This document shows positions 3,509-25,612 of a stretch of 27,605 nt of DNA, piece by piece. The DNA is from Macrostomum lignano (taxonomy: Eukaryota): positions 1 to 27,605 of the forward strand of contig NIVC01002763.1 in NCBI GenBank assembly GCA_002269645.1, in the 5' to 3' direction. The notes beneath the pieces are model-generated. The model saw only the letters and a program-made list of their open reading frames with translations. It made no database searches and was not told the DNA's origin. Every line of letters begins with the position of its first letter. Within the stretch, counting starts at the first letter, position 1. The position numbers were made by a program, and so were the translations under genes.

Positions 3509-6500
3509 GTGAGGGCTGTGTGTGCATCATTACTTGGCTGGGCTGTCATCCTCCCTGATCCTCAGTAGCTGGGCCAGCCTCCCAAATCCTCAGTTGCTGG
3601 GCCAGCCTCCCAGATCCTCAGTTGCTGGGCCAGCCTCCCAGATCCCCAGTTGCTGGACCAGCCTCCCAGATCCCAGTTGCCGAGCCAGCCTCCCAGAACC
3701 CAACAGGTTGCTGGGCTGTTAGACTCAGAATTTGCAGTCACCAGTTCTCAATGCACTCTCAAGCAGCTCTCATTTGCCCCCTCTCTCTTTCTCCTCGCAT
3801 GGCAGACTGCTCGCTTCATCCGGTGTGCATCAGCCACCTCCGCCTGCCGCCGGAGTCCGCCTGGCCGGACAAGCCGCCGCTGATGGCCGCCACCCTGGCC
3901 TGTGTGGGCCTGCCGGTTCCTCCGAGCGACTGCTTCGACTGCAATACGACAGCCGTCAGGCCTGCCTGCACTGCCTGACGCCTGACGGTCGAGTTCTCAC
4001 CATCGACTGTCTGTCCGGTTGGCTAGTTGACTCTCTGGCAGTGCCTCGGGACACCACCGATCTGCTGCTAGTTCGCAGTCACGCAGAATCGTCAATATTA
4101 GCTCTGGCTAGTCCCAACAGCGTCACCCTAGTGGAATATCCATCCTGTAGACGTTTGCACCGATTGAGCTTGCCTAGTAAACTTGCCGATGCTCGCCTAC
4201 TGGCCTGTCGGTCAACTACTGTTAGTAGAATAATCCAACAGCCGGAATTATTTGTTTGGGGCGGCAACAGTTTAGTGTATCGGCTGCGAGAAACTTCGCC
4301 AGGTCAGCAGTATCAGAGATTGCTCGACTCGCTACAGTTTGATGAAGCTGAGCTGTGCGCTAAACGGTACGGACTGCCTATGGACCGGTTGTACTATGCC
4401 AAGTGCAGGCATCTGCTAGATTCAGACTCTTCTAGTGCGTCTTCTTCGACACCCGTGTCGGAGGAGTCCCTGGCTGAGCTGGTCAGCTGTTTGGATAAGC
4501 TGGCATTCTCTACTGATGTTGAATATTTGCTGTTGTTAAGCAGCTGTCTGAAAGGTGAGGGCTTGCTTTTTTATGAAATCTGACGTCATACTTTTTGTTG
4601 CCAGGCCTTTGTGATGGTTTTTTATTTTAATCCTTCAGTGTATTGTTTAACCCGAGTCCTTCACACATCCTTCAGTGGCCTGAGCTGCCACCCCTCCGAT
4701 CCTTCAGTGGCCTGAGCTGCCACCCCTCCGATCCTTCAGTGGCCTGAGCTGCCACCCCTCTGATCCTTCAGTGGCCTGAGCTGCCACCCCTCTGATCCTT
4801 CAGTGGCCTGAGCTGCCACCCCTCTGATCCTTCAGTGGCCTGAGCTGCCACCCCTCTGATCCTTCAGTGGCCTGAGCTGCCACCCCTCTGATCCTTCAGT
4901 GGCCTGAGCTGCCACCCCTCTGATCCTTCAGTGGCCTGAGCTGCCACCCCTCTGATCCTTCAGTGGCCTGAGCTGCCACCCCTCTGATCCTTCAGTGGCC
5001 TGAGCTGCCACCCCTCTGATCCTTCAATGGTCCTCAATAAAATCTACAAACAGCGCTAATTTACCTTTCTTCACCCCACTAACTCTCCCACAGCCGCCTG
5101 TAACGGGTCCAGTCCCGGCCTGCTCGAGCAGCTCCTAACAACGGTGTCGAATCAGCTGTGCCGCTATTTCTACGACCCATCTGTAGCGGTTGGCACCGAA
5201 GCAGCCGATCAGTCCATCCTAGCCCGCTGGTGCGAGACCAGCGATTTAGCCGCCGCAACATTGCAACGCCTACGCGTTTGCCTACAATTGATCGAGCCGG
5301 AACAATTCAGTTTAGAAATGTGGCAATGGTTTCAAACTGTTAATATTTGTTCGTATTTTTGCGACTCTGTACTGCGCAATAATCAAGAGGAATCGGCTGT
5401 ACTGTTTGCTAATTATAAGCAGACCATCTGCAGACAATTGGCAGATAGCGGAGAATATCTACAGCTGGTGCTGGACAATCTGCGCTGCTGTCAACCGGAT
5501 GGATTGCTGTCACAGCCTTGGTGCGTCTGGCTGGCTGAGGAGTTCCTGCCGGCTATGGCCGCCTCGCCTGAGTCTGCGAGGTTTGCTCCCATAGTAAGTT
5601 GATCGAGTTATGACAGCTTGCTGTTACCGGCTTGGGAGCTAGAATAGATAGAGTGGATTGGAGTGTTAGATGGAAAGAATTGGAGTGCTAGATAGATAGG
5701 ATTGGAGTGCTAGATTGAGTGGATTGGAGTGCTAGATAGAAAGGATTTGAGTGCTAAATAGAGAGGATTAGACTTCTAGATAGGGAGAATCAGCAGTGCT
5801 AGATAAAGAGAATCAGGAGTGCTAGATAGTGAGAATCGGGAGTGCTCGATAGGGAGGATCAGGAGTGCTAGACATGGAGGATCAGGAGTGCTAGATAGTG
5901 AGAATAAGGAGTGCTAGATAGTGAGAATCGGGAGTGCTCGATAGGGAGGATCAGGAGTGCTAGACATGGAGGATCAGGAGTGCTAGATAGTGAGAATAAG
6001 GAGTGCTAGATAGTGAGAATCAGGAGTGCTAGATAGGAAGGATCAAGAGTGCTAGACATGGAGAATCAGGAGTGCTAAATATGGAGGATCAAGAGTGCAA
6101 GACATGGAGAATCAGGAGTGCTAAATATGGAGGATCAAGAGTGCTAGACATGGAGAATCAGGAGTGCTAGATATGGAGGATCAGGAGTGCTAAATAGTGA
6201 GAATCAGGAGTGCTAAATATGGAGGATCAGGAGTGCTAGAAATGGAGGATCAGGAGCGCTAGATAAGGAGGATCAGGAGCGCTAGATAAGGAGGATCAGG
6301 AGTGCTAGATATGGAGGATCAGGAGCGCTAGATAAGGAGGATCAGGAGTGCTAGATATGGAGGATCAGGAGTGCTAGATAGGGAGGAACAGGAGTGCTAG
6401 ACATGGAGAATCAGCAGCGCTAGATAAGGAGGATCAGGAGTGCTAGATATGGAGGATCAGGAGTGCTAGATAGGGAGGAACAGGAGTGCTAGACATGGAG

Positions 6501-9500
6501 GATCAGGAGTGCTAGATAGGGAGGAACAGGAGTGCTAGACATGGAGGATCAGGAGTGCTAGATAGGGAGGAACAGGAGTGCTAGACATGGAGGATCAGGA
6601 GTGCTAGATAGGGAGGAACAGGAGTGCTAGACATGGAGGATCAGGAGTGCTAGATAGAGAGAATTAGGAATGCACCTGTACATTCGCTACTCTAATCTCA
6701 CAGATCGCTGATTGGCTAGAGGACTGCATAGACGGCCTGATCCGATTGGACGACTCCGCGGCCACCAAAGCGGACGCCTGCCGCCAGTTCTTAGCCAATC
6801 TGCTGCGCTGCGTTGGCCAACCAACTGAAGAAGCCGGGGACTCGTTTAGCCGCCCCCTGAGCCAGTTAGCTAGGGCTTTAGACGAGCTGGTGTGCCTGTG
6901 CTCCAGGTATAAACTGCGTCTGAGCGTTCGCCTCTACCGGCGTATGGATAAAGGGGATTTGGCCAAGCATATCCTGGATTACATTCTGCTTAGTCAGGAT
7001 GCCGGCCTGTTTGGCCTGTTTGGAGCTTATTTGCAGGTGAGCCTCGCTGAAATGACCCCTGGTTCGATTCCGTGCGCAGCCACAATTTTCATTTTGGGGT
7101 TTTGCTCGTGCTCAGGAGCGCAAGTATCTGTACTATAAAAATACGAATTTCCTCCCGCAGGAGTGCGGCCTTAATAGCGACCAATTCTATTGCGACTATT
7201 GTTCAGCCAGGCTGCAGGCAGCCAGTGCTGCAACAGACGCGGCTATGCATATGATTGGCTCCAATAATGATGCAGCCAATCATCTGCATGGCAGCGACAG
7301 CCACGGCAGCGGTGTGAGTCCTCAGGATGCTGAGAGGACCGCTGTCACCGTACTCGGTCGAATAGTTAACGAAGACGCCAGGATGCGTTGTACTATTATG
7401 CTAGCCGAGCAGGCGACTGTGCCGTGGTCAGAGGAGGTGCAAGCAGTTGTTGAGCAGCATCTGGCTTTGAGGCATCGGCCTGATCGGGTAGTGCTGCAGC
7501 GGGCTGTAACGGCGGCTAAGACTCAGGCGCTGTTTAAACGGTAAGGCTGACTGGGGGTCTAGAGGTAGAGAAATGGGGTGTTGGCTGGGGTTAGCGGCTC
7601 ATTGGGAGTGGTCTGTAGGGAGAGAAATGGGGTGGTGGCTGGGGTTAGCGGTTCACTGTGGGTCTGGAGGGAGAGAAATGGGGTGGTGGCTGGGGTTAGT
7701 GGCTCATTGGGGGTGGTCTGTAGGGAGAGAAATGGGGTGGTGGCTGGGGTTAGTGGCTCATTGGGGGTGGTCTGTAGGGAGAGAAATGGGTGTCTCATTA
7801 GGGGTCTGGGGGGAGAGAAATGGGTGTTGGCTGGGGTTAGAGGCTCACTGTGGGTCTGGAGGGAGAGAAATGGGGTGGTGGCTGGGGTTAGTGGCTCATT
7901 GGGAGTGGTCTGTAGGGAGAGAAATGGGGTGGTGGCTGGGGTTAGCGGTTCACTGTGGGTCTGTAGGGAGAGAAATGGGGTGGTGGCTGGGGTTAGTGGC
8001 TCATTGGGGGTGGTCTGTAGGGAGAGAAATGGGGTGGTGGCTGGGGTTAGTGGCTCATTGGGAGTGGTCTGTAGGGAGAGAAATGGGGTGGTGGCTGGGG
8101 TTAGCGGTTCACTGTGGGTCTGTAGGGAGAGAAATGGGGTGGTGGCTGGGGTTAGTGGGTCATTGGGGGTGGTCTGTAGGGAGAGAAATGGGGTGGTGGC
8201 TGGGTTTAGTGGCTCATTGGGGGTGGTCTGTAGGGAGAGAAATGGGGTGGTGGCTGGGGTTAGCGGTTCACTGTGGGTCTGTAGGGAGAGAAATGGGGTG
8301 GTGGCTGGGGTTAGTGGCTCATTGGGGGTGGTCTGTAGGGAGAGAAATGGGGTGGTGGCTGGGGTTAGCGGTTCACTGTGGGTCTGTAGGGAGAGAAATG
8401 GGGTGGTGGCTGGGGTTAGTGGCTCATTGGGGGTGGTCTGTAGGGAGAGAAATGGGGTGGTGGCTGGGTTTAGTGGCTCATTGGGGGTGGTCTGTAGGGA
8501 GAGAAATGGGGTGGTGGCTGGGGTTAGCGGTTCACTGTGGGTCTGTAGGGAGAGAAATGGGGTGGTGGCTGGGGTTAGTGGCTCATTGGGGGTGGTCTGT
8601 AGGGAGAGAAATGGGGTGGTGGCTGGGTTTAGTGGCTCATTGGGGGTGGTCTGTAGGGAGAGAAATGGGGTTGTGGCTGGGGTTAGTGGCTCATTGGGAG
8701 TGGTCTGTAGGGAGAGAAATGGGGTGGTGGCTGGGGTTAGTGGCTCATCATACATGCGCAACCTCCAAATTTCGGTCGGCCATGCGACTTAGTTTTAACA
8801 AAAATGCGACTTAGTTTTTGGCCAAAAATGCGACTTACATGTAAAAAAACCCGAAAGCAAAATTAACGCAACTTTGGGTAAACGGCAGGAGTAACTATGA
8901 CTGTCTTATAAAGCCAAAATGCCTCGTCAGCTACTTAGTACTACTACTCTGTGTTTTTTCGGGTTGGCATTTTTGCGACTTCCTTGGTTGGCCGCCAAAT
9001 CGGTCGGCCGGATCGGCCGACTCGGCCGACTGTTGCGCATGTATGTGGCTCATTGGGGGTGGTCTGTAGGGAGAGAAATGGGGTGGTGGCTGGGGTTAGC
9101 GGTTCACTGTGGGTCTGTAGGGAGAGAAATGGGTGTTGGCTGGCGTTAGAGGCTCACTGTGGGTCTGGAGGGAGAGAAATGGGGTGTTGGCTGGGGTTAG
9201 AGGCTCACTGTGGGTCTGTAGGGAGAGAAATGGGTGTTGGCTGGCGTTAGAGGCTCACTGTGGGTCTTGAGGGAGAGAAATGGGGTGTTGGCTGGGGTTA
9301 GAGGCTCACTGTGGGTCTGGAGGGAGAGAAATGGGGTGGTGGCTGGGGTTAGTGGCTCATTAAGGGTCTGTTGGGAGAGAAATAGTGTGGTGGCTGGGGT
9401 TAGCAGCTCAGCGGTTTAGTAGGCCCAGGGGTCTGGGGAGTGAGGTGGCGTTAGCTGCTCACTAAATGGCCTCGAGAAACAAGAGACTCGTGTAATTGCT

Positions 9501-12500
9501 TACTGAAAAAAGGGTATAAATGAATGTATAGTGACAGGCCCAAGCCACAAATAAAAATAGAAAAGAGAATTTCTTATCTGTTTTGTATTATCAATTTGTT
9601 CGACTGCTTTTCAACAGTGAGACACCCACCATTTAAAACCCCTAAAACATTTAACAGCTACAATATCAGGCAGCACGACGCCAGCCAGCAGGACGCCCAA
9701 GCTAGGGCAGCTTTAAAAGGCCTATTCTCACAGCTGGCCAGCGGCCGAGTTACTCCGGCCACTGTCCGAGCCGATCTGCTACTATTAACGGACACGTTTG
9801 GATTTACAGTCTCGGATTTAATGACCGTGGCCGTTGATTGCGCTTTGAAAGAGGGTAGTTCCGTTAAGTGAGTAGTTGTGTTTGTCTGTTTTAATTAGTA
9901 TGATTACGTAATTAACGTAAGGGAAAAATTATAGAACAAGGCATTCGGAGTATTTAATTACAGGTTTATAGTTACTCTCGTCGCTAACCTGAGCAGCCCT
10001 TTAATCTTTTGTGTCTTTAGCTCGTATAATTAGAACTAAAGAAATTGTAGAGCTGGTACCGCTAGATGTAAAATAGTTCTAATTAGATGACGAGGCGCTT
10101 AGTTATAATTGCTCTTACTGTTTACCCTTGCGGTGTGCTGTGAGGCATTGAAAGCGAATATCGCATTTCAATAATCGGTCGGTTTGGGTGCCCAGCCCAA
10201 GCGCTATACCGTAGTACCAACAGTTGTTGTGACGTTCTGCTTATTCTATATTAATACTGACAGGCGTTATGACGCTCTGGCAAGAAGGAACTCTAGCCCT
10301 GCCTAGCAAGCTTCCCGGAAATAAAAGATTAACTCAAAGCAGGCAAACTCAAAGTGGCCGAGTAACGGACGCTTCTTATATTTAAATACTCAAGTTGAAC
10401 TCAATCACAGAACTCAAATCGGTGATGGTTGGCTAATAGGTCCTGACTGTCGACTAATACTAATAGTCGACGTCTGGTGTCTGCTCTTCTCTGACCCGTT
10501 CTCTGGGTTTTACTTAATCTAAATCTACAAATCGCTATGACCGATGTCTGTTTGACAAACAAAAAGGGCGAGATGCGAGAGAAAAAGGGCGCACAACAAT
10601 AAATAGCAAACTCAGGCCTGGGGCAGGGGGATAGACTGCCCGATCGGCTAAGCCGACGAGAACAGAACACGCACTGGCCAGCCAATCAAACCCCGCCTGG
10701 GGGAGAGGGTGCAGCACGCACAAAGCCCCGCGGCCAGCCAAACCTTGACCTGGCTCACGTCAACTCCAAGCTAGCACAAAAGTGCATCGCGCCGTGCCAA
10801 AAAGACAAAGGCAAGTGCACTACAATTTCATAGTGCACGTTGTAGATGATTCGTCGGTCTTGTCCCAGCTGACCAGGACTTTGCCACTAACCAAGTAATC
10901 AAGTTTCCTCTTTACTGTGTTAACAGTACCCTGTTCCTCGGCTTTCCTTTTCGGAACGACGTTGCCGTTTACCAGGTCGTAGAAAATTGTCAGCACCGAT
11001 CAGAAGGGAGACTGGCTTATTGGCATCGCGGAGATCAAACGGATTGGCAAGATTAAAAGGGTGAATTTCTGAATGTGCGTCCAACATCACTGATGTTTGA
11101 GGTTTGCAGATCCAAGAAGTCGTGTAGCCTTTCAAAGAAACATAATTTCCGTCCTGGGAACCCGTTCTCAGAATGTGGCATCATACGATGTTCGATGTAG
11201 ATTCGCTGCATCTTGTTCCAAAAGTGTTGCCACGCAGCACTTTACTTGCCTGTGTTGTAAAGCTCAACTGGCTGCTCATGTCCCGTCTGATGTAGGTTTT
11301 ATTAATGGCGGTATCTAATAACTCGTAGATCAACACTCCCCAGTCAAAACGATGCCGTTGCCTTGACGTCGTTAACACATCGAAAATAACGTCGCCAAAT
11401 AAGCCATTTTGTCGCACGCGGTGACGTTGCTATAACGACCCCAGGCAACGTTAGAATTTCACGTTACTGATGACCAAACGGCGACCATTCATTACAGATT
11501 GCATATACTAAGCACAGATGCTTAGCACTTTCAATATACCGAGAATCTCAAAACTATAATTCAATAAGTTTGTTCTAAGATAGGGAATAAAAATAAACTA
11601 AGTTTAAAACGTTATTTTGCTCTGGTTTTACAGAATATCTTAATAAATTACACTTTCTGACATAAATATTGTGAATTTACGAATGCATTTTAAAGAGCGC
11701 AGATATTTTACTGGCTGTGAAAAAAGTACAAGAAAAAACAAACTCGTCCCACATTTTGATATTGATGAAGAAGATCTGGTTTTTGGAGTCATTATCGTTG
11801 CACTGTTACAGGTACAGTTTGAAGAAGCAGGGGCTTTCTGATGTCCGGGCGGAGCGCTTCAAAAGCGCATGACTTCATAAGACCTAAATCTATGTCTAAA
11901 ACCGTAAAATACAGTCGCCTAAATTTCACATCGCATTTCATTTTACATAGATAGATAGATTCCAGGTATGGAAATGTTACCGCAACCTGCAACTATCGAA
12001 AAGGTCTAAAACATTATTCTAAATTAGTATTAAAGCTAACATTATGCGTTTAAAATATATACACTATAGCTGCAAGTATAAAACAAATCAGTGACGATAC
12101 AAGAGGCTTTATTTGCACTTCATCATGTAACTTCGCTCTAGAAATTTGATTTTCACTATCAATCACTCAGTTCTAAAATACTTTTATTTAAATTAAAAAT
12201 AAGACATTTAAGCAACAGAATAACAGAACCGTCTGTTCTCTCACGCATACTTCAGTCTCCACGTAGTAAAAACGAAAGGAATTTAATAGTTTTTTGGACC
12301 CTCGCAACTATCTCTGGATTCGGTCAATCACTAAATTAGCTGAGAGTTATAAGAAAACGTTAAATAATAATTTTGTCAGTCTGTCTAAGCAGATAAATAG
12401 GCTGGTTGACCAAAGCAGGCTGCCTCCCGATTAGTGAAGGCAGGAAACTGAAAGCCAAACTTGACAGGCCGCCTTACTTTGGCCTGTACGCAAAAGCTCG

Positions 12501-15500
12501 CAGGACTGCTGATTTCAGGCATTTACTATCTTTTGGATATTTTTTGTAGCAAACGGATTGGCAAATTTTTCAGCAGCCTTTGTATGTCTGCAGCACGAAT
12601 GGAGCAGACCCTCTAAGTTGGTGACGCGTACAGTGCCAGAACAAAATCCCACATGTTGGGATGCGCAGTCGTTATAAAGCTTCTCACGCGGCTATGAAAG
12701 CCCTCCTCTTTGCTGTTCGTCCACTCCTGGCAGTTAAAGACTGATATAATGTCGAAACCGACCTCGATCCAGTAGATTCGTAAATATGCAAATACGAGTA
12801 GGTTGAATAGGTTTGAATAGATTGATAGTTTGAATAGTTTGATAGAAATGTCATTGTCTTTCTTAGGGAGACTGCGGTATTAACAATATGGAAGCATAGA
12901 CAGTTTACCAGATGTCCGAAAAGATTATATTGACAATAAAATTTTACGTAAAGTAGCATTAAACAACATAAAAATTAGAAAGATAAGATTGAAATTAAAC
13001 AAAGTTACCACCTCGATACACTTGTCATGTCAAGGAAACTGACTTCAGTAGTCCATGAGGAGCTGACGGCGAGTTTACTGTTGGAATTGATAGAATTCAG
13101 GTGTCGAACAAATTCAGTCAGTTTCAGCCGGGTGGTCCCAGTGAATAAAGATGTCATCTATGCACCTGAAGTAGATGTCCGGGTTATAAAAGGAAGTTCT
13201 CAGTTCAGTTTTCTCCCAAAGGCTGCATGGCTGGGTGCAAATTAATATGCGACTCATGACTGTGCCTTTAAGTTGTAAGAAAATTGTTATCAAATTCAAA
13301 GTCTTCTGTACAAGCATAGTTACTGTAGCTTTATTATCTCAGCATACGGTCTAGTCGGGTCAAGATATCGGATAAAGAATACCTGTATTGCTGCAATGCC
13401 CTGGTCTATGGAGATCATGGAGTATAGACTCTGGATATCACAGGTTGCCAGAGTCCATCCTTCTTATCCAATTTATCCATAAGGTGTGCTTTGAAGTCAT
13501 ATGAGTCCTTAATGAAAGTGGGTTGAGCTTGGGCAATCGGATTAAGAAAAAAATCAATGCATTTTTCTGCCAGTGGCTTCAGAACTACATCGGCTAACAT
13601 AAGGTCTGTCTGCTAGGACCCGGAAATCACATCACATCACAGAATCACAAGATCAGAGTTCTTGTGAGTTTTTGGTAGCAGGTAGAAATGCCCGGGGCGA
13701 AGATAAGAGAACTGTTTGTTTGATATAAACTTTTTGCTACATAAAATGAGAAAGTTCCACCTGATAATTTCCGCAGTCTCGGGTTTCGACGGCTGGTCCA
13801 GCTTTTGATAGGCATTAGTGTCAAGCAATTGGTCGTACGCTGCAAGGTTGCATGATGACTACTGCGTTTCCTTTGTCCGCCTTTTATATTAGGACGGAGC
13901 TGTTTCGCTCCTGAATCGCTCTTGTCTCTGGTGCTAGCGGGCTAACTAACCCTCTTCAGCTCTCCAAAGAACAAGCTCAAGTGGATTCATAAAAATTTAA
14001 AGAGAACCGAAGAATAGTACGCACATAGCCACAAACTGTTCAGATGTAGCGTTATTGTATTTAATCGAAAAGTATCTAAGCTTAGTACCGGCTAATAGCG
14101 GTCTAGGCGCATAAAACAGTCATTGAAAAGCGCATGAGCATGGCTGACTGATATCAAGCGGTCAGAAACGCAGTCAAGTGCAAAGTCGTTGAGCCAAGTC
14201 AAGTTAATCCAATACAGTAGGCTGAAAGTAATGATATGCAAAAAAGGCATGCGATCAGTCATTAGAAAAATATAATTCACACACTCCTGCGGCAACCTAG
14301 ATCGCAGTCGGTGGACACACTTCTCAGCACTAGCCAACGCCAGCGAGCCGTCGCAGCAACCTGCGTGCAGTGCGTCGAGCATGCGCGCAGCGTTGAATTC
14401 GAAGTAAAGCAGACCCTGCTTCATTAAGCTTGTGGCATAAGCTGCGTAGTTGCTGCTCATATAAGACATCAAGGCAGTAACCAGCTCAGCATCGACGTAC
14501 TTTGTCGCAGGCAGGCCTGGAAAGCTAACGTCAGTCCGGTTTTAATACCGTGCACTTGGCGGTACCACGTCCAAGCCATTCATTACTAACAGGTGTCATT
14601 GCGGTCAGCAGTGTTACACGCTCACCATCGTTGTAGGTGCGCCAGTAAGCCATCAGGCAACCCCAGACAATACCACAGATGTGGCGGGGCATCCCATGGC
14701 GGTACAGCACTTGCGCGCTCATTTGGTACGCTCTGTATCTTGTAGCATGGTCGAGGAGCACGGCGCCTTGTAACTGTCGCAAAACGAACGTTGACACAGC
14801 ACGGAGTGGGTAGAGTACAGTACGCATATGAGTTCACCGACGCCGCGACCTGACAACTGCTTAGAATCACGCAGCTCGAAGCCCCTCACTTCCGCGTGCT
14901 GTACAAAGCGACGTTCCAGCAGCGGCTGAAAGTAGTGACCCATACGTCGTCACCTTGCTGGATACGCTTCATCAACTGTGAATTAAATCCGGCGTATTGG
15001 CACACAACGATCATCGCGGTATCAAAGTAGACAACATTTAAGATAATATTGTGATAGTTAATGCTACGTTGACCAGACGGCATTTCTTGCGTGACGCGTA
15101 TCAGCTGTTGAAAGCGACGACACCTCATATACTGATCCAGCATAGCGCGGCTGGCCTACTAAAGGGGCTTTGACACGTCTTGACTAAAGCTCAGATTGCG
15201 CATGACACAACCCAATTGCTTGACGAAATACACTGCTGATGAGCTGCAAAAGCACGGGGTAGATTATTAGATTAACCAGGCAGGACATGCAGTCGATTAA
15301 ATCGTAGAGTCAGGAGAGCGAGAGAGAGTGAGAGAGCAGAAGAATATCAATATTTTTATAATACACTGTAGATGTAAATTCCAGTCTAGTTCCGATCCGA
15401 TGCGCTGAGGTTCAAAGCACGGCTTGTTCTTTGACTGTTAGTGAGTCATTTTCACTGTTAGGACGCCTTGCACTAAAATTTCACTATTAGGGCCTGTATA

Positions 15501-18500
15501 ATATATGGGCCGGCTGATGATATATTTCTCAAGAACTCCGAGTCACTAGGCGATTCTCTACGTGTGATATTGCATATATGCGTTGTATCATTGGCTGGCT
15601 CATTTGTTTATATGGCAAGGTGAGAAGAAATCTTGTAATTAGGCAAGCTCACTATGGACTACAAGTCACTAACAAATACAGGATCTTGGTTTGAAATCAG
15701 AAATCATACCTTGCAAAAGTTCCCATCAAGTAAGTTTAATATACAAGTAGGAAGCACACTACCAACATACCTAAAAATTTAGAGTCAAGTGCACTAGACA
15801 TGGCATACTCTAGCTCATGGGCTATAGAGACGTGGATAACATTCAATCAAATTTGAGTACATTAGCAAAGCCATGCAAGCCAAACCTGTGCTAAACCAAC
15901 CAACAAAAAAACTTTTATATTCATGTTTTGCATTCTTTACTCGTACATTGTCCAACTAATTGAAATCGGCTACCAGTGGTTTAACTTACCTTGATCCACT
16001 CGATGCAAAATCAATACAAATAATTATGCACTATTGCGAGTAATGGAATGAAGAGCACTTGTAGAACGGAGAATAGCTCGGCAGATTTTTTCAGATACGT
16101 GCGTAGTAAAGCATTATCATTTAAGGCTGATTTTATTTTCGCCTCAAGAGGGCTTCAGGACATGTGTGCAGGAGGCTAAGTGTCGTAGGGGGGGGACAAG
16201 AAAGTGTACATCTTAAAGCTTAAAGTGCGCCAGGATGCACGCAGCCCCCCCTCCCCTGACCTCTAGCTAAAACAAATTTACCTATGACACAATACCAGAT
16301 GCCGAGACCTACTGGCCTGTCCATTGCGCGATCTGGGCATCACTGTTAGCCTTCAGGATCGTCTGCAAGCCGCTCTGCGCTGCGTTCAACGCGCCCACAT
16401 CGGCCTACAATTATATAATCCAGCCTACGTATCTGCTAACGAGGCCGACTTTCTACTCGATCTTGGTTGCCTAGCAACGGACGCATATTTTTCCCAGCTA
16501 GCCGAGGCCGGCTCCGATCCCGGTCCAGCCGGCCTCGAATCCGCCGTCGTAGCTCGAATCGGTCGAACTATTCGGTTAATGCGATTTACCTGGCGAGCTG
16601 CTCGGTTGCTAGGCAACACTGTGCCAGATTATGAGCGCCTAATTGACAACGGAGACGCCGCGGCGGTCGCTTATTTGGCTAAGCTGCACGGCTTGCCAAG
16701 CTCTGATTGGCTGCGCCAGCTGGCTAGTCTTCTGCTTCTAGTAGATAACAAAAATTTGGGGATCTCCGGCTCAACGGACACGCCTAAGCTTCTGCCATTG
16801 TTAGTGCCGGCACTGCTCACTGTTGATGGACTGTCGGTGTGGCGGGTCGCTCAGCTGCTTCTGGATGCTGGGCTGGTGAGTCATGGAGTGAAATATCGGA
16901 TTTCTAGCTTTATGATTCATAATATATTGGGATCCTGGATTTTTTAAACTATATTTGTAATTGAAATTAAGGTTAATGATTCATAACTGGGATATGAGAA
17001 TTCAAGGTTTTTTAATAACAGTTTGTGTCTATGATTTCAAGATTTCTGATTCATAATTGGGACCTGGGGGATTTCAATATTTATGATTCATATAATTGGG
17101 ATCTGGGGGGATTTCAAGATTTATGATTCATATAATTGGGATCTGGGGGGATTTCAGATTTATGATTCATAATTGGGATCATAAAGTAGCGCATATATAT
17201 TAAGACAGAGTTTTGATTTTTATATGTAGATTGCTCTTTTATTGCAATTTACAATACAAACTCAGCCCAATACAATACAAATACAAACTCCAATCCCTTT
17301 CGCTTGCAGTCGGAACTGGCCGCCCGACAAAACTTGGACGCTTTGCTCAAAGCGGCCCGAGTCTCACTGCTCGAACTTGACGATGACAGCGATATTGACA
17401 GTATCTCCGATTCTAATAGCGACATTAGCAGCGGCCTGTCCGCTCTAGGCGAGTTGCTAACCATCGCTTGCCGACTCGGAGGATTCGGTTCCGCCTTGTC
17501 GCTTCATCGCTTGCACACCTGTCTGCGTATTATTCAATCCTGCCGCTGTTGCTGCTGTCTGGCCGAGTCTGGCGCAGTGAACTCAAGCGATTCAGCTGCC
17601 CAGCTAGGCATGGCACTGGAGGTTCGCTATGAGGATTCCGCAATAATGTCGCTGCCGTCTACTCAGAGATTGATGTTTCTCAAATTGACTGGCCAGATGA
17701 TGCGGCTGACTGAACGAGCGTCGGATGCTGCGCCTGCGGTTGCGATCGATCAGGTGAGAGGAGTCGTTATTGCGATTGTTAAGTTACTGTCTTCCAGTTG
17801 TTCCTACCGATCACGAAATTCTTGCTTCGTTCTTTCTTTCTTTTATTCCTCCTTTTCTAGAAATCCCATATTCTCCTTTCCAGGCAATTAGACTTGATTC
17901 TCGTTTCATGGAAATCCCTCTCTCGTTTCTTTGAAACCCCACTTGCCCTTTGTTTCCTCGAAATCCCACTTGCCCTTCGTTTCCTGGAAATCCCTCTCTC
18001 GTTTCTTTGAAACCCCACTTGCCCTTTGTTTCCTCGAAATCCCACTTGCCCTTCGTTTCCTGAAAATCCCTCTCTCGTTTTCCTTGAAATCCCACTTGCC
18101 CTTCGTTTCCTGGAAATCCCACTTGCCCTTCGTTTCCTAGAAATCCCTCTCTCGTTTTCCTTGAAATCCCACTTGCCCTTCGTTTCCTGGAAATCCCACT
18201 TGCCCTTCGTTTCCTGGAAATCCCTCTCTCGTTTTCCTTGAAATCCCACTTGCCCTTCGTTTCCTGGAAATCCCTCTCTCGTTTTCCTTGAAATCCCACT
18301 TGCCCTTCGTTTCCTGAAAATCCCTCACTCGTTTCCTTGAAATCCCACTTGCCCTTCGTTTCCTGAAAATCCCTCACTCGTTTCCTTGAAATCCCACTTG
18401 CCCTTCGTTTCCTGAAAATCCCTCACTCGTTTCCTTGAAATCCCACTTGCCCTTCGTTTCCTGAAAATCCCTCACTCGTTTCCTTGAAATCCCACTTGCC

Positions 18501-21500
18501 CTTCGTTTCCTGAAAATCCCTCACTCGTTTCCTTGAAATCCCACTTGCCCTTCGTTTCCTGGAAATAATACTTACCCCTCATTTACTTACCGGAAAACCC
18601 ACTTACCCATCGATTCCTGGAAATCTCACTGGACTCTCGTTTCCTGGAAATCCCAAATGCCTCTCGTTTCATGGAAATCCCAAATGCCCCTCGTTTCCTG
18701 GAAATCCCACTTACCCCTCGTTTCCGGGAAATCACACTTTTATTTCTCCGAAAATGCAACTTCTTCCTTTTCTATTAATACCATTTATTTTCCTTTCCTG
18801 AAAAATCACATGGTTTTGTAATCCTTTAATCACCTAGACGCCCAGCAACGCGACCCTAATCAACCTGGCTAGTCAGGCCATCGACACTCTTCGACTAGCT
18901 GGCCGCCCCTTAGCCGCCCTCACCCTGGCAACTCTGCTAAGCGAATTACAAGACAATACGGACTCATTAGGTGCCGCGGACAGTTTGCCGTCAATCTGCC
19001 AGGACCGCTGTCATGCGCTACTAACTGGACTGTTATCTCAGCGTCTGGAAGCGAAACTAATCGACAAACAGCTGTGCCAGTCCGCCGCCTGGTCTCTGCC
19101 GGAATCCGTTGGCCAGTCCGTTCTACGACGGGTCGCGCAGAAATCTCGGCACTCATACAATCGATTGGAGTTCATCGCTCGCCTAGCCTATCACTATGGT
19201 GCTCAGCGGGGCAATCCTGAGCACGCTAAACGGGCACTGGCACTGGCTAAGGGAGCCTATTGGAGTAGGACTCTGTCCGCTTTGGGTATTAAGATTGGCG
19301 ACTTGACGGTGAGGAATCTAACTATCCTTAGATCCCATCAATTTATCCCATCCCAGATCCCATCAATTTATCCCATCCCAGATCCCATCAATTTATCCCA
19401 TCCCAGATCCCATCAACTTATATCATCCCCAGATCCCAAAAATGTACGCCATCCTAAGTTCTCTTAATCCGTTGTCTCTACAGATTCGAGAATCCTAGCT
19501 ACAACAACAGCTGGAACCTTTATTAGATTGCACTTCACTTATGAAAATATTTCCCAGATCCTACAGTATACACTTTTTGCAAAGCGATATTCACCCTTAC
19601 TATATCTGTCTGCTAATATCGCAAATATTGATTAGGCACCTGGCAAAGCGGCTGAATGCGCCGAGACTCTGTGCAGTCTACCTGTGTCTAAATCGCTGCA
19701 GCCTGATTTACTGCTATACTACTGTCAGCAGTATCAGCAGCCCGCTGCCGCTCACCTGCTGCGCTACCTCGAAAATCTATTGTTTCCGCAGTCTGGCAGT
19801 CAGGTGTGTTCTTGGCGCTTTTAATGCGCTTTTGCTTTTCTAAATGTGGGTTGTCACCTTCCTAGATTGTCAGTTACTGGGCCAGTCTCATCCTCAGTTG
19901 CTGGGCCAGCCTCATCCTCAGTAGCTGGGCCAGCCTCCCAGATCCTCAGTTAGTCGCTGGGCGAGTCTCCCAGATCCTTAGTTGCTGGGCCAGCCTCCCA
20001 GATCCTCAGTCAGTTGCTGGGCCAGCCTCCCAGATCCTCAGTTGCTGGGCCAGCCTCCCAGATCCTCAGTCAGTTGCTGGGCCAGCCTCCCAGATCCTCA
20101 GTCAGTTGCTGGGCAAGCCTCCCAGATCCTCAGTTGCTGGGCCAGCCTTCCAGATACTCAGTCAGTTGCTGGGCCAGCCTCCCAGATTCTCAGTCAGTTG
20201 CTGGGCCAGCCTCCCAGATTCTCAGTCAGTTGCTGGGCCAGCCTCCCAGATTCTCAGTCAGTTGCTGGGCCAGCCTCCCAGATTCTCAGTCAGTTGCTGG
20301 GCCAGCCTCCCAGATTCTCAGTCAGTTGCTGGGCCAGCCTCCCAGATTCTCAGTCAGTTGCTGGGCCAGTTCCCTCATCATCCCCATATCTGACTGGTGC
20401 CGCACACGCAGGTGGAGGTCAGCCAAGGTGCCGTGAACCTGGCCGGCGCCACCCTTGCCGTACTGAAGCGGGTGAGCCATCCGGACGAGCTGCTCAACCG
20501 TCTACTCGGCTACTACGCTCAGTTAGATCCGTACGAATACGAGTCTATCGAGCTGATCTGCTGCAGCCTGCTAGCGATGCCGCAGTGCCCCGAGGCCCAG
20601 GCTGCTCATTGTAGCAGAGCTCTGCAGTTGCTCGCTTCGTTGAAGCGCTACAGACGAGTGTCTCAGATTAGCAGCTACGAGAGGAACTGGTGAGGACTTG
20701 TCAATTCTGACTGCGTGACGCTGTGACACCTCCAATTCTGAATGCGTGACGCTTTTGATTCTGAATGTTCGACGCCTCTGATTCTGAATGTGTGACGCCT
20801 CTAATTCTGAATGCATGACGCTTCTGATTCTAAATGCGTGACGCTTCTGATTCTGAATGTGTGACGCCTCTGATTCTGAATGCGTGACGCTGTTGTGTCT
20901 TTAATTCTGAATGCGTGACGCTTCTGATTCTGAATGCGTGACGCCTTCGATTCTGAATGCGTGTGACGCCTCCGATTCCGAATGCGTGACGCATCCGATT
21001 CTGAATGCGTGACGCATCCGATTCTGAATGCGTGACGCTGTGACACCTTCAATTCTGAATGCGTGACGCTTCTACTTTTGAATGCGTGACGCCTCCGATT
21101 CTGATCACGTGATGCTGTGACGCCTCTAATTCTGAATGCGTGACGCCTCTGAATCTGAATGGTGACACCTGTAATTCTGTACTTATAATGAGTGTGTCTG
21201 GTGTCCTGGCTCAGATTAACGCGTTGCTACATTAATTTTATAAACTTATTTACGCTCTGTGCCCTTGTTTACGCTCTGTTGCATATCCGCATTGAAACCG
21301 CAGGTACCAGAAGCGAATGCAGCGGCCAGACCTGGCCGAATGGTACTTCACCTCAGCGTCCGCCATCAATTCGAAGTCGTCGCGTCGTTTAAATTTATTC
21401 GCCCTACTGGAGCCCAAGCTGTACAAAATTGTGAATCCAGAATTAAGATTCGACACTCTGGACTATTGGCTGGGCGTGTCCGATCTCATTGGCATATCCG

Positions 21501-24500
21501 AGACCGAGCTTAAACTTTCCGCCGCTGATAAGATATTCGAGGAAGCGTTCGGTCACTCGCATCTGCAGCACCAGCAGCAGCAACAGCACGAGGCTAAAGT
21601 TAATAATTGGGCCGCCCAACCCGACTTAGCCAGTCAGATGGCTGTGGCAAGGATGGAAAAGGTTTGCTGTTGTGTCACTCGCTTAGGGTTTGTTGTGTCA
21701 CTCGTTTAGGGTGTGTTGTGTCACTCGCTTAGGGTGTGTTGTGTCACTCGCTTAGGGTGTGTTGTGTCACTCGTTTAGGGTGTGTTGTGTCACTCGCTTA
21801 GGGTGTGTTGTGTCACTCGCTTAGGGTGTGTTGTGTCACTCGCTTAGGGTGTGTTGTGTCACTCGTTTAGGGTGTGTTGTGTCACTCGCTTAGGGTGTGT
21901 TGTGTCACTCGCTTAGGGTGTGTTGTGTCACTCGCTTAGGGTGTGTTGTGTCACTCTTTTAAGGTGTGTTGTGTCACTCGTTTAGGGTGTGTTGTGTCAC
22001 TCGTTTAGGGTGTGTTGTGTCACTCGTTTAGGGTGTGTTGTGTCACTCTTTTAAGGTACAGTGTTGTGTCACTCGCTTAGGGTGTGTTGTGTCACTCGTT
22101 TAGGGTGTGTTGTGTCACTCTTTTAAGGTATGTTGTGTCACCCGTTCAGGGTGTGTTGTGTCATTCGTTTAAGGTGTGTCACTGCGCTGTCACTGTATGG
22201 TGTCACTGATATGTCAATGGTGTCACTCAATGGTGTCACTGATATGATCAATGGTGTCACTGGTATGATCAATGGTGTCACTGATATGATCAATGGTGTC
22301 ACTGGTATGATCAATGGTGTCACTGGTATGATCAATAGTGTCACTGGTATGATCAATGGTGTCACTGATATGATCAATGCTGTCACTGGTATTATCAATA
22401 GTGTCACTGGTATGATCAATGGTGTCACTGATATGATCAATGGTGTCACTGGTATTATCAATAGTGTCACTGGTATGATCAATAGTGTCACTGGTATGAT
22501 CAATGGTGTCACTGATATGATCAATGCTGTCACTGGTATTATCAATAGTGTCACTGGTATGATCAATGGTGTCACTGATATGATCAATGGTGTCACTGGT
22601 ATTATCAATAGTGTCACTGGTATTATCAATAGTGTCACTGGTATGATCAATGGTGTCACTGGTATGATCAATGGTGTCACTGGTATTATCAATAGTGTCA
22701 CTGGTATGATCAATGGTGTCACTGGTATTATCAATAGTGTCACTGGTATGATCAATGGTGTCACTGATATGATCAATGCAACTAGTGTCACTGGTATGAT
22801 CAATGGTGTCACTGGTATGATCAATAGTGTCACTGGTATGATCAATGGTGTCACTGATATGATCAATGCTGTCACTGGTATTATTAGTGTCACTGGTATG
22901 ATCAATGTGTCACTGATATGATCAATGATCAATAGTGTGTATGATCAATATCACTGGTATGATCAATGGTGTCTGGATAATGCTGTCATCAATAGTGTCA
23001 CTGGTATGATCAATGGTGTCACTGATATGATCAATGGTGTCACTGGTATTATCAATAGTGTCACTGGTATTATCAATAGTGTCACTGGTATGATCAATGG
23101 TGTCACTGGTATGATCAATGGTGTCACTGGTATTATCAATAGTGTCACTGGTATGATCAATGGTGTCACTGGTATTATCAATAGTGTCACTGGTATGATC
23201 AATGGTGTCACTGATATGATCACCTCGCTCCCGTACAGGTGCTAACTAGCGTATACGATTCGGAGCGAGCTTTGCACGTGGCATTCGCCATGCTGAAGCG
23301 AACTAGCTTGGGCTGGTTGAAGCTGCGCATTACCCGAATCTGCCTGGCAGTTTGCCAAGCCTGGTCTGAGACTGAAACTACCGCTGCGCCGCCGCAGCCG
23401 CCTGCGACACTTCAACAGCAGAAACTAACCGGCGGTGCCGCGCAACAGTCGATTCATCGGGCCGAAGCTTCGTTGAAACGCTATCGCGACATTCTAGAAG
23501 CTCTTGAATGCGAGCAGGCACTACACGCCAACGGATTAAGCGACTGCTCAGATTTGGCTAAGCTGTGCTCAAGTCCTAGCGAACTGCTCAATCGACTGGT
23601 CTCGGCCGGTGAAGCCGAGGCTGCCAGTCAGGTGGCCGAGATTTTGGGCGCAGATCTGTCAGCTGTGGTTGCTAAGCGCGTGCAAGATTGGCTAGGCATT
23701 AAGCCGGCTGGATCGGGGGCCGATGGCTCGCCTGGTGAGTTGGCTGGGAGGGGCTTCTGATTAATGATGTTTGATTTTTTGTTAGATAGGTATCAGATAG
23801 TACTATCGCAGCATTAGGGTTATCGAATCATTCCCATTAGCTACCTAAGGATCACTCCTACTTGCTCCCTAGGGATCACTCCTACTCGCTCCCTAGGGAT
23901 CACTACTATTAGCTACCTAAGGATCACTACTATTAGCTACCTAAGGATCACTCCTATTAGCTCCCTAAGAATCACTCCTATTAGCTACCTAAGGATCATT
24001 ACTATTGGCTACCTAAGGATCACTACTATTAGCTACCTAAGGATCACTACTATTAGCTACTTAAGGATCACTACTATTAGCTACCTAAGGATCACTCCTA
24101 TTAGCTACCTAAGGATCATTACTATTAGCTACCTAAGGATCATTACTATTGGCTACCTAAGGATCACTACTATTAGCTACTTAAGGATCACTACTATTAG
24201 CTACCTAAGGATCACTACTATTAGCTACCTAAGGATCACTACTATTAGCTACCTAAGGATCACTACTATTAGCTACCTAAGGATCATTACTATTAGCTAC
24301 CTAAGGATCACTACTATTAGCTACCTAAGGATCACTACTATTAGCTACCTAAGGATCACTACTATTAGCTACCTAAGGATCATTACTATTAGCTACCTAA
24401 GGATCACTACTATTAGCTACCTAAGGATCATTACTATTAGCTACCTAAGGATCACTACTATTAGCTACCTAAGGATCATTACTATTAGCTACCTAAGGAT

Positions 24501-25484
24501 CACTACTATTAGCTACCTAAGGATCACTACTATTAGCTACCTAAGGATCACTACTATTAGCTACCTAAGGATCACTACTATTAGCTACCTAAGGATCACT
24601 ACTATTAGCTACCTAAGGATCATTCCTATTAGCTACCTAAGAATCACTCCTATTAGCTACCTAAGAATCACTCCTATTAGTATTAGCTCCCTAAGGATCA
24701 CTCCTACTCGCTCCCTAAGGATCACTCCTACTCGCTCCCTAAGGATCACTCCTACTCGCTCCCTAAGGATCACTCCTACTCGCTCCCTATGGATCACTCC
24801 TACTCGCTCCCTAAGGATCACTCCTACTCGCTCCCTAAGGATCACTCCTACTCGCTCCCTTTAGGGATCACTCCTATTAGCTCCCTATAGATCACTTCTA
24901 TTAGCTCCCTAAGGATCACTCCTATTAGGATCCTATTAGCATTAATTTTAGATCAATTGCATCTTTAGATAAAGTCTCATAGCTTTCATTGAAATCTCTC
25001 TGCTTGTAGGCAGCGATTCGCAGCAGAGCCAATCAATGCTGGACCTGAGCGCCGACGCTCTGCTATCAGTCAACGTCTGCGACATGATGTCCCAGATGCA
25101 GCAGCAACAGCGCGATGAACTCGACCAACTGCTGGACGATGAGCAGCGCTTGGCCGACACGGCCGACTTGATTGTTCGCCTCGTGCAGCGCAGCGACGAT
25201 CGAGCTCGTTCTGCCTGTCTGGCCACCGTCAGGGACGCTTGGGACTCGGAGGATTGGCGGCCTAGCGGCGTGTTCCTCGCCTGCGCCAGGGTGCTGCACC
25301 GCCTGGAGGCAGACTCCAGACTGGCCGACGCCTGGCATATGAGGATCTGCGAACTGCAGGTAAGGGGTTTTTAATAATAGGGCTGCTTGCGCCTGTCCCG
25401 TCCGTCCTGCTGTGTCTGTCTGTCTGTCTGTCTGTCTGTGTCTGTCTGTCTGTCTTAGTGTCTGTCTATCTGTCTGTCTGTCTA

Positions 25485-25563
<79 letters not shown>

Positions 25564-25578
25564 TAGTGTCTTAGTGTC

Positions 25579-25612
<34 letters not shown>

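Follow-up and report, generated by a model that had tools for sequence, protein, structure and literature searches.

RNA viruses can enter a genome only with the help of a reverse transcriptase of the host, and the documented routes of entry are LTR elements and LINEs. Transcripts of dsRNA viruses are generally not polyadenylated. Retroelements can also be joined to other RNAs, U6-L1 reportedly being a chimera that arose by LINE template switching. In Aedes, Pao/BEL and Ty3/gypsy elements harbor or adjoin nonretroviral EVEs (10.1101/127498; PMC5497376); one of these EVEs lies inside a Pao-Bel element, and Penelope accounts for 0.2% near EVEs compared to 0.42% genome-wide (PMC5497376). In ticks, non-LTR elements are enriched near EVEs, with Penelope at 1.56% versus 1.08% (PMC6580184). 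Recombinants of IAP and LCMV and cases involving LINE-1 and bornavirus have been reviewed (PMC3205384), and template-switch chimeras formed by LINEs are described for WEIRD/MGL in Magnaporthe and for mammals (PMC2104539). Toti-like EVEs (ToEVEs) are described from planthoppers (PMC10636211) and viruses from flatworms (PMC9241645). Neptune-type EN+ Penelope-like elements are characterized by a CX4CxxC linker, a GIY-YIG domain, and insertion at microsatellites (PMC8557442). Full-text searches, which covered mainly journals open without subscription, returned no report of a Penelope-virus chimera in titles or abstract openings; tables of EVE neighbors in supplements could hold such cases.

The locus described here is a single, decayed juxtaposition of a toti-like virus piece and a Penelope-like fragment in the genome of Macrostomum lignano. 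The juxtaposition is real and carries a hint of a shared insertion, and the surrounding BEL/Pao element offers a conventional alternative. Being one decayed locus, whose other viral end has an LTR element as a competing partner, it is a testable lead and not a demonstration. The EVEs in LTR elements of Aedes and the IAP-LCMV recombinants resemble the locus in that a piece of an RNA virus lies within a co-oriented LTR element, in a strand-biased cluster of transposon scraps (10.1101/127498; PMC5497376; PMC3205384). In contrast to these, the viral 3′ side here joins a Penelope RT scrap rather than the LTR element, a candidate 7-bp duplication surrounds virus and Penelope together, and only one locus is present. 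The LINE chimeras share with it a partner RNA, 3′-intact in them and probably so here, upstream of a 5′-truncated retroelement in the same orientation as well as a short flanking direct repeat (PMC2104539), but here the partner is a dsRNA virus, the retroelement is Penelope-like and lacks its 3′ end, the repeat is a 7-bp candidate, and there is one case rather than a family. In the planthopper ToEVEs, too, toti-like virus sequence is integrated in an animal genome (PMC10636211), whereas the piece found here is broken, intronic, and antisense and shows no sign of co-option. The source family of the Penelope fragment matches Neptune-type elements in its reverse transcriptase (RT), CX4CxxC linker, GIY-YIG domain, and microsatellite insertion (PMC8557442), whereas the copy studied here is an internal RT scrap without linker, endonuclease, pLTR, or (TC)n flank.

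The window, a stretch of 27,605 nucleotides covering positions 1 to 27,605 of contig NIVC01002763.1 (C2763), carries a KNTC1/ROD gene on the plus strand, and all coordinates given below are window positions. All pieces are held by one intron of this gene (about 9868 to 16298, plus strand), whose borders are predicted from GT/AG splice-site candidates; Pfam ARM_KNTC1 and Rod_C were found in exons elsewhere in the window. The genome carries the locus on four contigs: C2763 itself, C4377 and C4417, which are 99.8 to 100% identical to the window, and C1128, which is 95 to 98% identical. All four copies contain the joint of virus, spacer, and Penelope, and the edge between Penelope and spacer was crossed by contigs of seven of the eight public runs examined (four studies). 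The joint is therefore not an assembly artifact. Contigs spanning Penelope well into the viral ORF were obtained from two of the eight runs. No empty site was found among the four genomic copies and the eight public runs. With respect to expression, the data sets listed as containing the locus included none of RNA, the RNA labels of the runs being tentative. In the C1128 copy, window positions 11607 to 13402 (1,796 nt) are deleted, with 11 other bases in their place; the deletion cuts the Penelope piece and recurs in run X4. All five coding-type scraps in the intron (Chapaev-like, BEL, virus, Penelope, and MULE) lie on one strand, antisense to KNTC1, and the co-orientation of virus and Penelope is therefore weak and unspecific evidence by itself. 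Many of the KNTC1 introns (4667 to 9410 and 17033 to 25612) are filled with tandem minisatellites with units of 21 to 54 bp, and the end of a very-high-copy short repeat (depth of ~10,000 in the run contigs) is located at 16193 to 16260, directly before a KNTC1 exon.

The viral part is a decayed toti-like (Ghabrivirales) RdRp on the minus strand (14092 to 15227) that extends from just after motif A to its likely natural stop, with homology that is firm in the profile alignment from 15221. The ORF ending at 14092 had been called viral in an earlier reading made from the sequence alone, and it proved to be real: a single-frame piece (15251 to 14928) gave 21 protein matches at E ≤ 1e-3 among 1.84 billion proteins, and all 21 matched proteins contain Pfam RdRP_4 (PF02123). 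Three of the ten matched proteins that were looked up bear virus names (Hubei toti-like virus 9, Murri virus [Ghabrivirales], and Totiviridae sp.). Only four further proteins were added by an alignment-based homologue search, and a Pfam search with the decayed piece alone gave no match. The RdRp profile aligned colinearly from 15155 to 14295 with three frame changes, and motifs B and C (GDD) are part of the similarity to polymerases of the RdRP_4 family. Upstream, the alignment could be continued without gaps as far as 15221, through two stops (2 of 5,000 shuffles). The reading frame is broken by two stops at 15161 to 15156, by frame changes near 14897, 14813, and 14585, and by the loss of ~112 codons near 14365. 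In a phylogenetic tree the piece formed a long branch in no supported clade, its top identity being 45% over 86 columns. As it lies inside a KNTC1 intron, occurs in four genomic copies, contains stops and frameshifts, and is bridged by contigs of the public runs, the viral piece is an integrated and decayed toti-like EVE, and the locus records a past toti-like infection of the host. Apparent matches to the viral motifs F and A at 15510 to 15270 were discarded; they were weak in the profile comparison (9 of 1,000 and 4 of 300 shuffles) and out of register with the core frame, and this DNA represents the BEL LTR end, primer-binding site, and leader.

The stop at 14094 to 14092 is probably the natural end of the RdRp, with ~112 codons lost inside, because the last 92 residues of the viral ORF fit the end of the homologue profile (positions 312 to 418 of 418; 0 of 1,000 shuffles with the end anchored and 2 of 1,000 with the end free). 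The first 58 residues of the ORF align to profile positions 147 to 199. Initially a stop acquired by decay was preferred, since in 22 of 23 homologues GDD is followed by 414 to 430 residues, a length that the window falls far short of, and a colinear test of the ORF tail was blank. This view was given up after the end-anchored test, in which the colinear zone did not match (165 of 1,000 shuffles). Three protein queries for other toti-like copies in the genome matched this locus alone, and as a PF02123 search missed even this locus, the sensitivity was low. Genome searches with PF04196 and PF00978 gave no matches, and their controls were blank too.

Downstream of the viral stop follows a spacer of 157 nt with 39% GC (13935 to 14091, minus strand), which lacks Penelope homology and is unique to the locus: all four genome candidates were copies of the locus, and nothing outside these copies matched. 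It could be the viral 3′ untranslated region (UTR), because its length fits the 37 to 317 nt that follow the stop in the four closest viral contigs. Its predicted RNA fold had a z score of −0.76. No poly(A) is present after the virus or after Penelope.

The Penelope-like (Neptune-like) RT fragment adjoining the spacer (13024 to 13934, minus strand, 911 nt) is truncated at both ends and matches family positions 1501 to 2453 with ~86% identity to intact copies over aligned bases. The KADKG motif at 13883 to 13869, from which the sequence-only reading had recognized a Penelope-like RT on the same strand as the virus, lies within this fragment, and the alignment to the family agrees with that assignment. 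Penelope coding had been thought to reach to about 14040. This did not hold, as family homology begins at 13934, which is the 5′ truncation point that the family alignment was to fix, and upstream of it there is none, which leaves a gap of 157 nt to the virus. The missing pLTR was seen correctly: the fragment ends at family position 2453 of ~3860 and lacks the 3′ ~1.4 kb of the family, although the family 3′ end (position 3600 or beyond) is kept in 23 of the 26 loci examined. By a strict pattern, (TC)n follows the 3′ end in 21 of the 26 family loci and precedes the 5′ end in 5 of the 11 that are truncated; the window copy has it on neither side. Since some 3′-truncated family copies, such as L010, nevertheless finish in (TC)n, starts inside Penelope RNA may occur. 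Compared to intact copies, the fragment shows 14% substitutions, the figure for the first two codon positions being ~10%. It also has 17 indels, 14 of which are frameshifting (10 frameshifts with other gap costs). No closer source copy was found among 40 scored of 103 candidates.

In the source-family copy L014, a 765-amino-acid ORF contains RVT_1 (E = 9e-6) and, at its C terminus, a GIY-YIG domain (E = 2.7e-4), both just below the curated cutoffs. The domain composition fits that of a young EN+ Penelope-like element of the described Neptune type, with RT and GIY-YIG in one ORF, a Cys linker, and microsatellite targets. L014 and related copies represent a young Neptune-like family that is present in tandem arrays and at (TC)n targets and has an upstream ORF. 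At their 3′ end we noted by eye what we take to be a short hammerhead-like core; Rfam at gathering scores gave no match in L014, nor any in the window. Elsewhere in the genome (L056/L057 on C1579 and C1061; 1358 to 1994), 140 nt from a member of this Penelope family are fused head to tail to a truncated Chapaev-like element.

On the evidence of alignments, the block of virus and Penelope is nested inside an older BEL/Pao LTR element in the KNTC1 intron. The 5′ LTR end of this element (to 15469), its decayed primer-binding site (15468 to 15452), presumably of the tRNA-Lys type, and its leader occupy 15254 to 15536 on the minus strand. They were identified by alignment to the sister copy L120/L174 (scores of 96/92, shuffle maxima of 44/41) and to the intact copy L121 (72 versus 40), which has a Pao peptidase and paired 280-bp LTRs; of six BEL leaders tested, five scored above every one of 500 shuffles and above 356 other stretches of the window. 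No more than 33 nt separate the leader from the firm viral homology. On the other side, the element resumes with the end of the gag region (11764 to 11847, minus strand), having advanced by 254 nt on the scale of the virus-free sister L120, followed by an interspersed repeat inserted in the BEL piece (11339 to 11757, no strand assigned) and by the protease region (10829 to 11336, minus strand); the 3′ half of the element beyond 10829 is absent. Between the Penelope fragment and this resumption lie a MULE transposase fragment (12541 to 12795, minus strand) and an AT-rich stretch (12796 to 13015, no strand assigned) that might continue the BEL leader. Neither this stretch nor the spacer aligned significantly to a BEL leader, and 12540 to 11848, considered as gag remains, gave no match to BEL. 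Upstream, the 5′ end (terminal inverted repeat [TIR] and ORF start; 15548 to 16168, minus strand) of a 3.8-kb TIR DNA transposon seems to interrupt the BEL LTR, a weak match to which continues at 16188 to 16213. This transposon is assumed to be Chapaev/CACTA-like; Pfam gave no family. The sister L120/L174 (C19 and C89) has an intact primer-binding site, lacks ~1.4 kb of gag, and resembles a nonautonomous derivative.

A 7-bp direct repeat, AGTGTAT, brackets virus, spacer, and Penelope as a candidate target-site duplication. Its upstream copy (15228 to 15234, minus strand) is located between the last BEL leader block (15254) and the firm viral homology (15221), and its downstream copy (13016 to 13022, minus strand) lies one base past the end of Penelope homology. 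The chance of such a word in the two junction windows was 0.8% when estimated from shuffles and 2% when other pairs from the intron served as the background, for one of five pairings and in a position-aware test designed after the word had been seen; in a plain shuffle test, 49 of 300 shuffles did as well. The sequence-only reading had noted no target-site duplication between the two parts. Around the virus alone or Penelope alone, as around the whole block or MULE, no duplication rose above chance. Beyond the downstream copy, the best match to the sister near the expected offset was not significant (128 of 1,000 and 55 of 300 shuffles; 5 of 164 other anchors equal). Because continuation of the leader past the repeat was not significant, the duplication lacks empty-site backing, and the repeat is no more than suggestive of a target-site duplication of a virus-plus-Penelope insert.

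The decay of the two parts was compared, as the sequence-only reading had proposed. Divergence from the C1128 copy is 2 to 3% in the viral and Penelope parts alike, with similar recent indel rates, so that the insert is older than the split from that copy. Penelope contains 14 (or 10) frameshifts in ~890 nt and the virus 3 that are visible; tests of 14 per 889 nt in Penelope against 4, 6, or 8 per 1,160 nt in the virus gave P values of 0.004, 0.02, and 0.08, respectively. At the decay of Penelope, a 149-codon ORF mostly in the true frame was obtained in 2 to 4% of simulations, and in 9% without the frame condition. In-frame stops (2 to 4 versus 2) did not clearly separate the two. The BEL piece, with one frameshift in 452 nt, and MULE, with none in 235 nt, both resemble the virus. 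The higher frameshift density of Penelope makes capture of an active copy in cis less likely and agrees with an already decayed Penelope RNA or separate events.

Three readings of the origin of the locus were weighed, their odds being a matter of judgment and not computed. The one that we tentatively prefer, at a little under an even chance, is that RdRp piece, spacer, and Penelope scrap form one composite cDNA. An RT would have copied Penelope RNA first and then jumped onto the 3′ end of the viral plus-strand RNA, and the composite cDNA would have entered the leader of the older BEL/Pao element with formation of a 7-bp target-site duplication. The layout expected from a template jump is present, namely, the same orientation and a viral partner upstream of a 5′-truncated retroelement, and because the probable natural terminus of the virus and a unique, UTR-sized spacer precede Penelope, the order would be that of a 3′-intact partner RNA followed by a 5′-truncated retroelement. 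What this reading does not account for is the absence of the 3′ end of the retroelement, where synthesis starts, and of (TC)n; the excess of frameshifts and the unrelated elements adjoining Penelope scraps elsewhere (L056/L057) also count against it. The Penelope RNA would thus resemble a passive, possibly already decayed template more than an active retrotransposing element, and a Penelope RT working in trans, the RT of a LINE, and that of BEL are all candidates for the enzyme. The chimeric insert made by Penelope RT, as put forward in the sequence-only reading, is therefore plausible as a single insert, given the natural C terminus, the spacer, the shared orientation, and the 7-bp repeat, but Penelope RT is no more than a possible agent. 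That Penelope RT and endonuclease began on Penelope RNA, jumped to the 3′ end of a nonpolyadenylated toti-like transcript, and inserted the hybrid while duplicating 7 bp of the target appears unlikely. If this were true, a virus-Penelope hybrid with target duplication would represent a third retroelement class as an entry route for RNA viruses and the first footprint of a Penelope-like element, from an RT clade related to telomerase, jumping templates and endogenizing an RNA virus, and it could explain how nonpolyadenylated transcripts of dsRNA viruses are copied.

Virus and Penelope could instead have inserted separately into BEL and been trimmed together by deletions, with the 7-mer a product of chance, a possibility that we take seriously but consider rather doubtful. 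The shared strand would then reflect the general antisense bias of the intron, which is possibly a piRNA-source-like locus. Every one of the five pieces (Chapaev-like, BEL, virus, Penelope, and MULE) is truncated and lies antisense to KNTC1. Large deletions are frequent, as seen from the 1,796-nt loss in C1128 and the missing RdRp codons, a Penelope scrap adjoins a Chapaev-like scrap elsewhere, and Penelope looks more decayed than the virus; yet the BEL piece, which should be the oldest, has so few frameshifts, and separate arrival requires both the repeat by chance (1 to 2% for this pair) and the natural viral terminus beside Penelope by luck. Capture by the LTR element, in which copy choice of the BEL RT onto copackaged viral RNA replaced part of the leader and gag and Penelope and MULE came later or were co-captured, seems improbable to us. 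The viral piece does lie within an LTR element and shares its orientation, with LTR end, primer-binding site, and leader within 33 nt of the viral 5′ edge and BEL resuming at 11847, and Pao/BEL and gypsy elements are described as EVE partners in Aedes (10.1101/127498; PMC5497376). Against this stand the ~2.1 kb that separate virus and BEL on the 3′ side, where they share no direct junction, and the outcome of an RdRp-profile scan of 13 BEL loci including the sister, which gave nothing below E = 4 and thus no second BEL-virus copy. Moreover, a Penelope element inserted later should be less decayed than the virus, and it is more so.

The sequence-only reading went on to propose Penelope elements as a route of RNA-virus endogenization and a search for further virus-Penelope chimeras. 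Mononegavirus-like and picorna-like RdRp pieces occur elsewhere in the genome, probably at four distinct loci, and one Penelope query found no match in the nine stretches around them. At the ~4 loci checked, nothing points to Penelope as a general route in this genome, and at the locus studied here the other viral end adjoins the leader of a BEL/Pao element, a known EVE route. The neighbors of the other insertions include gypsy, mariner, Chapaev-like, and Helitron pieces. C498:62412-63841 and C497 (L181, L182, L186, and L187) carry an inserted mononegavirus-like L-protein sequence whose open frame runs for 720 codons, with a gypsy RT/RNase H ~3 kb off on the other strand and Chapaev-like and Helitron pieces downstream. 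Further decayed mononegavirus-like L pieces occur on C4304, C1292, C838, and C1166 (L183 to L185, L188, and L189), where a Usp gene and a mariner scrap are neighbors, and at C56:1178996-1179655 (L190), where the neighbor is an SPT6-like gene. A picorna-like RdRp (PF00680) at C2376:110619-111395 and on C1674 (L191, L192, L207, and L208) is located between two 401-bp PHD-finger-coding repeats, which are 98.5% identical and 5.7 kb apart, and a gypsy-type gag follows downstream on the same strand.
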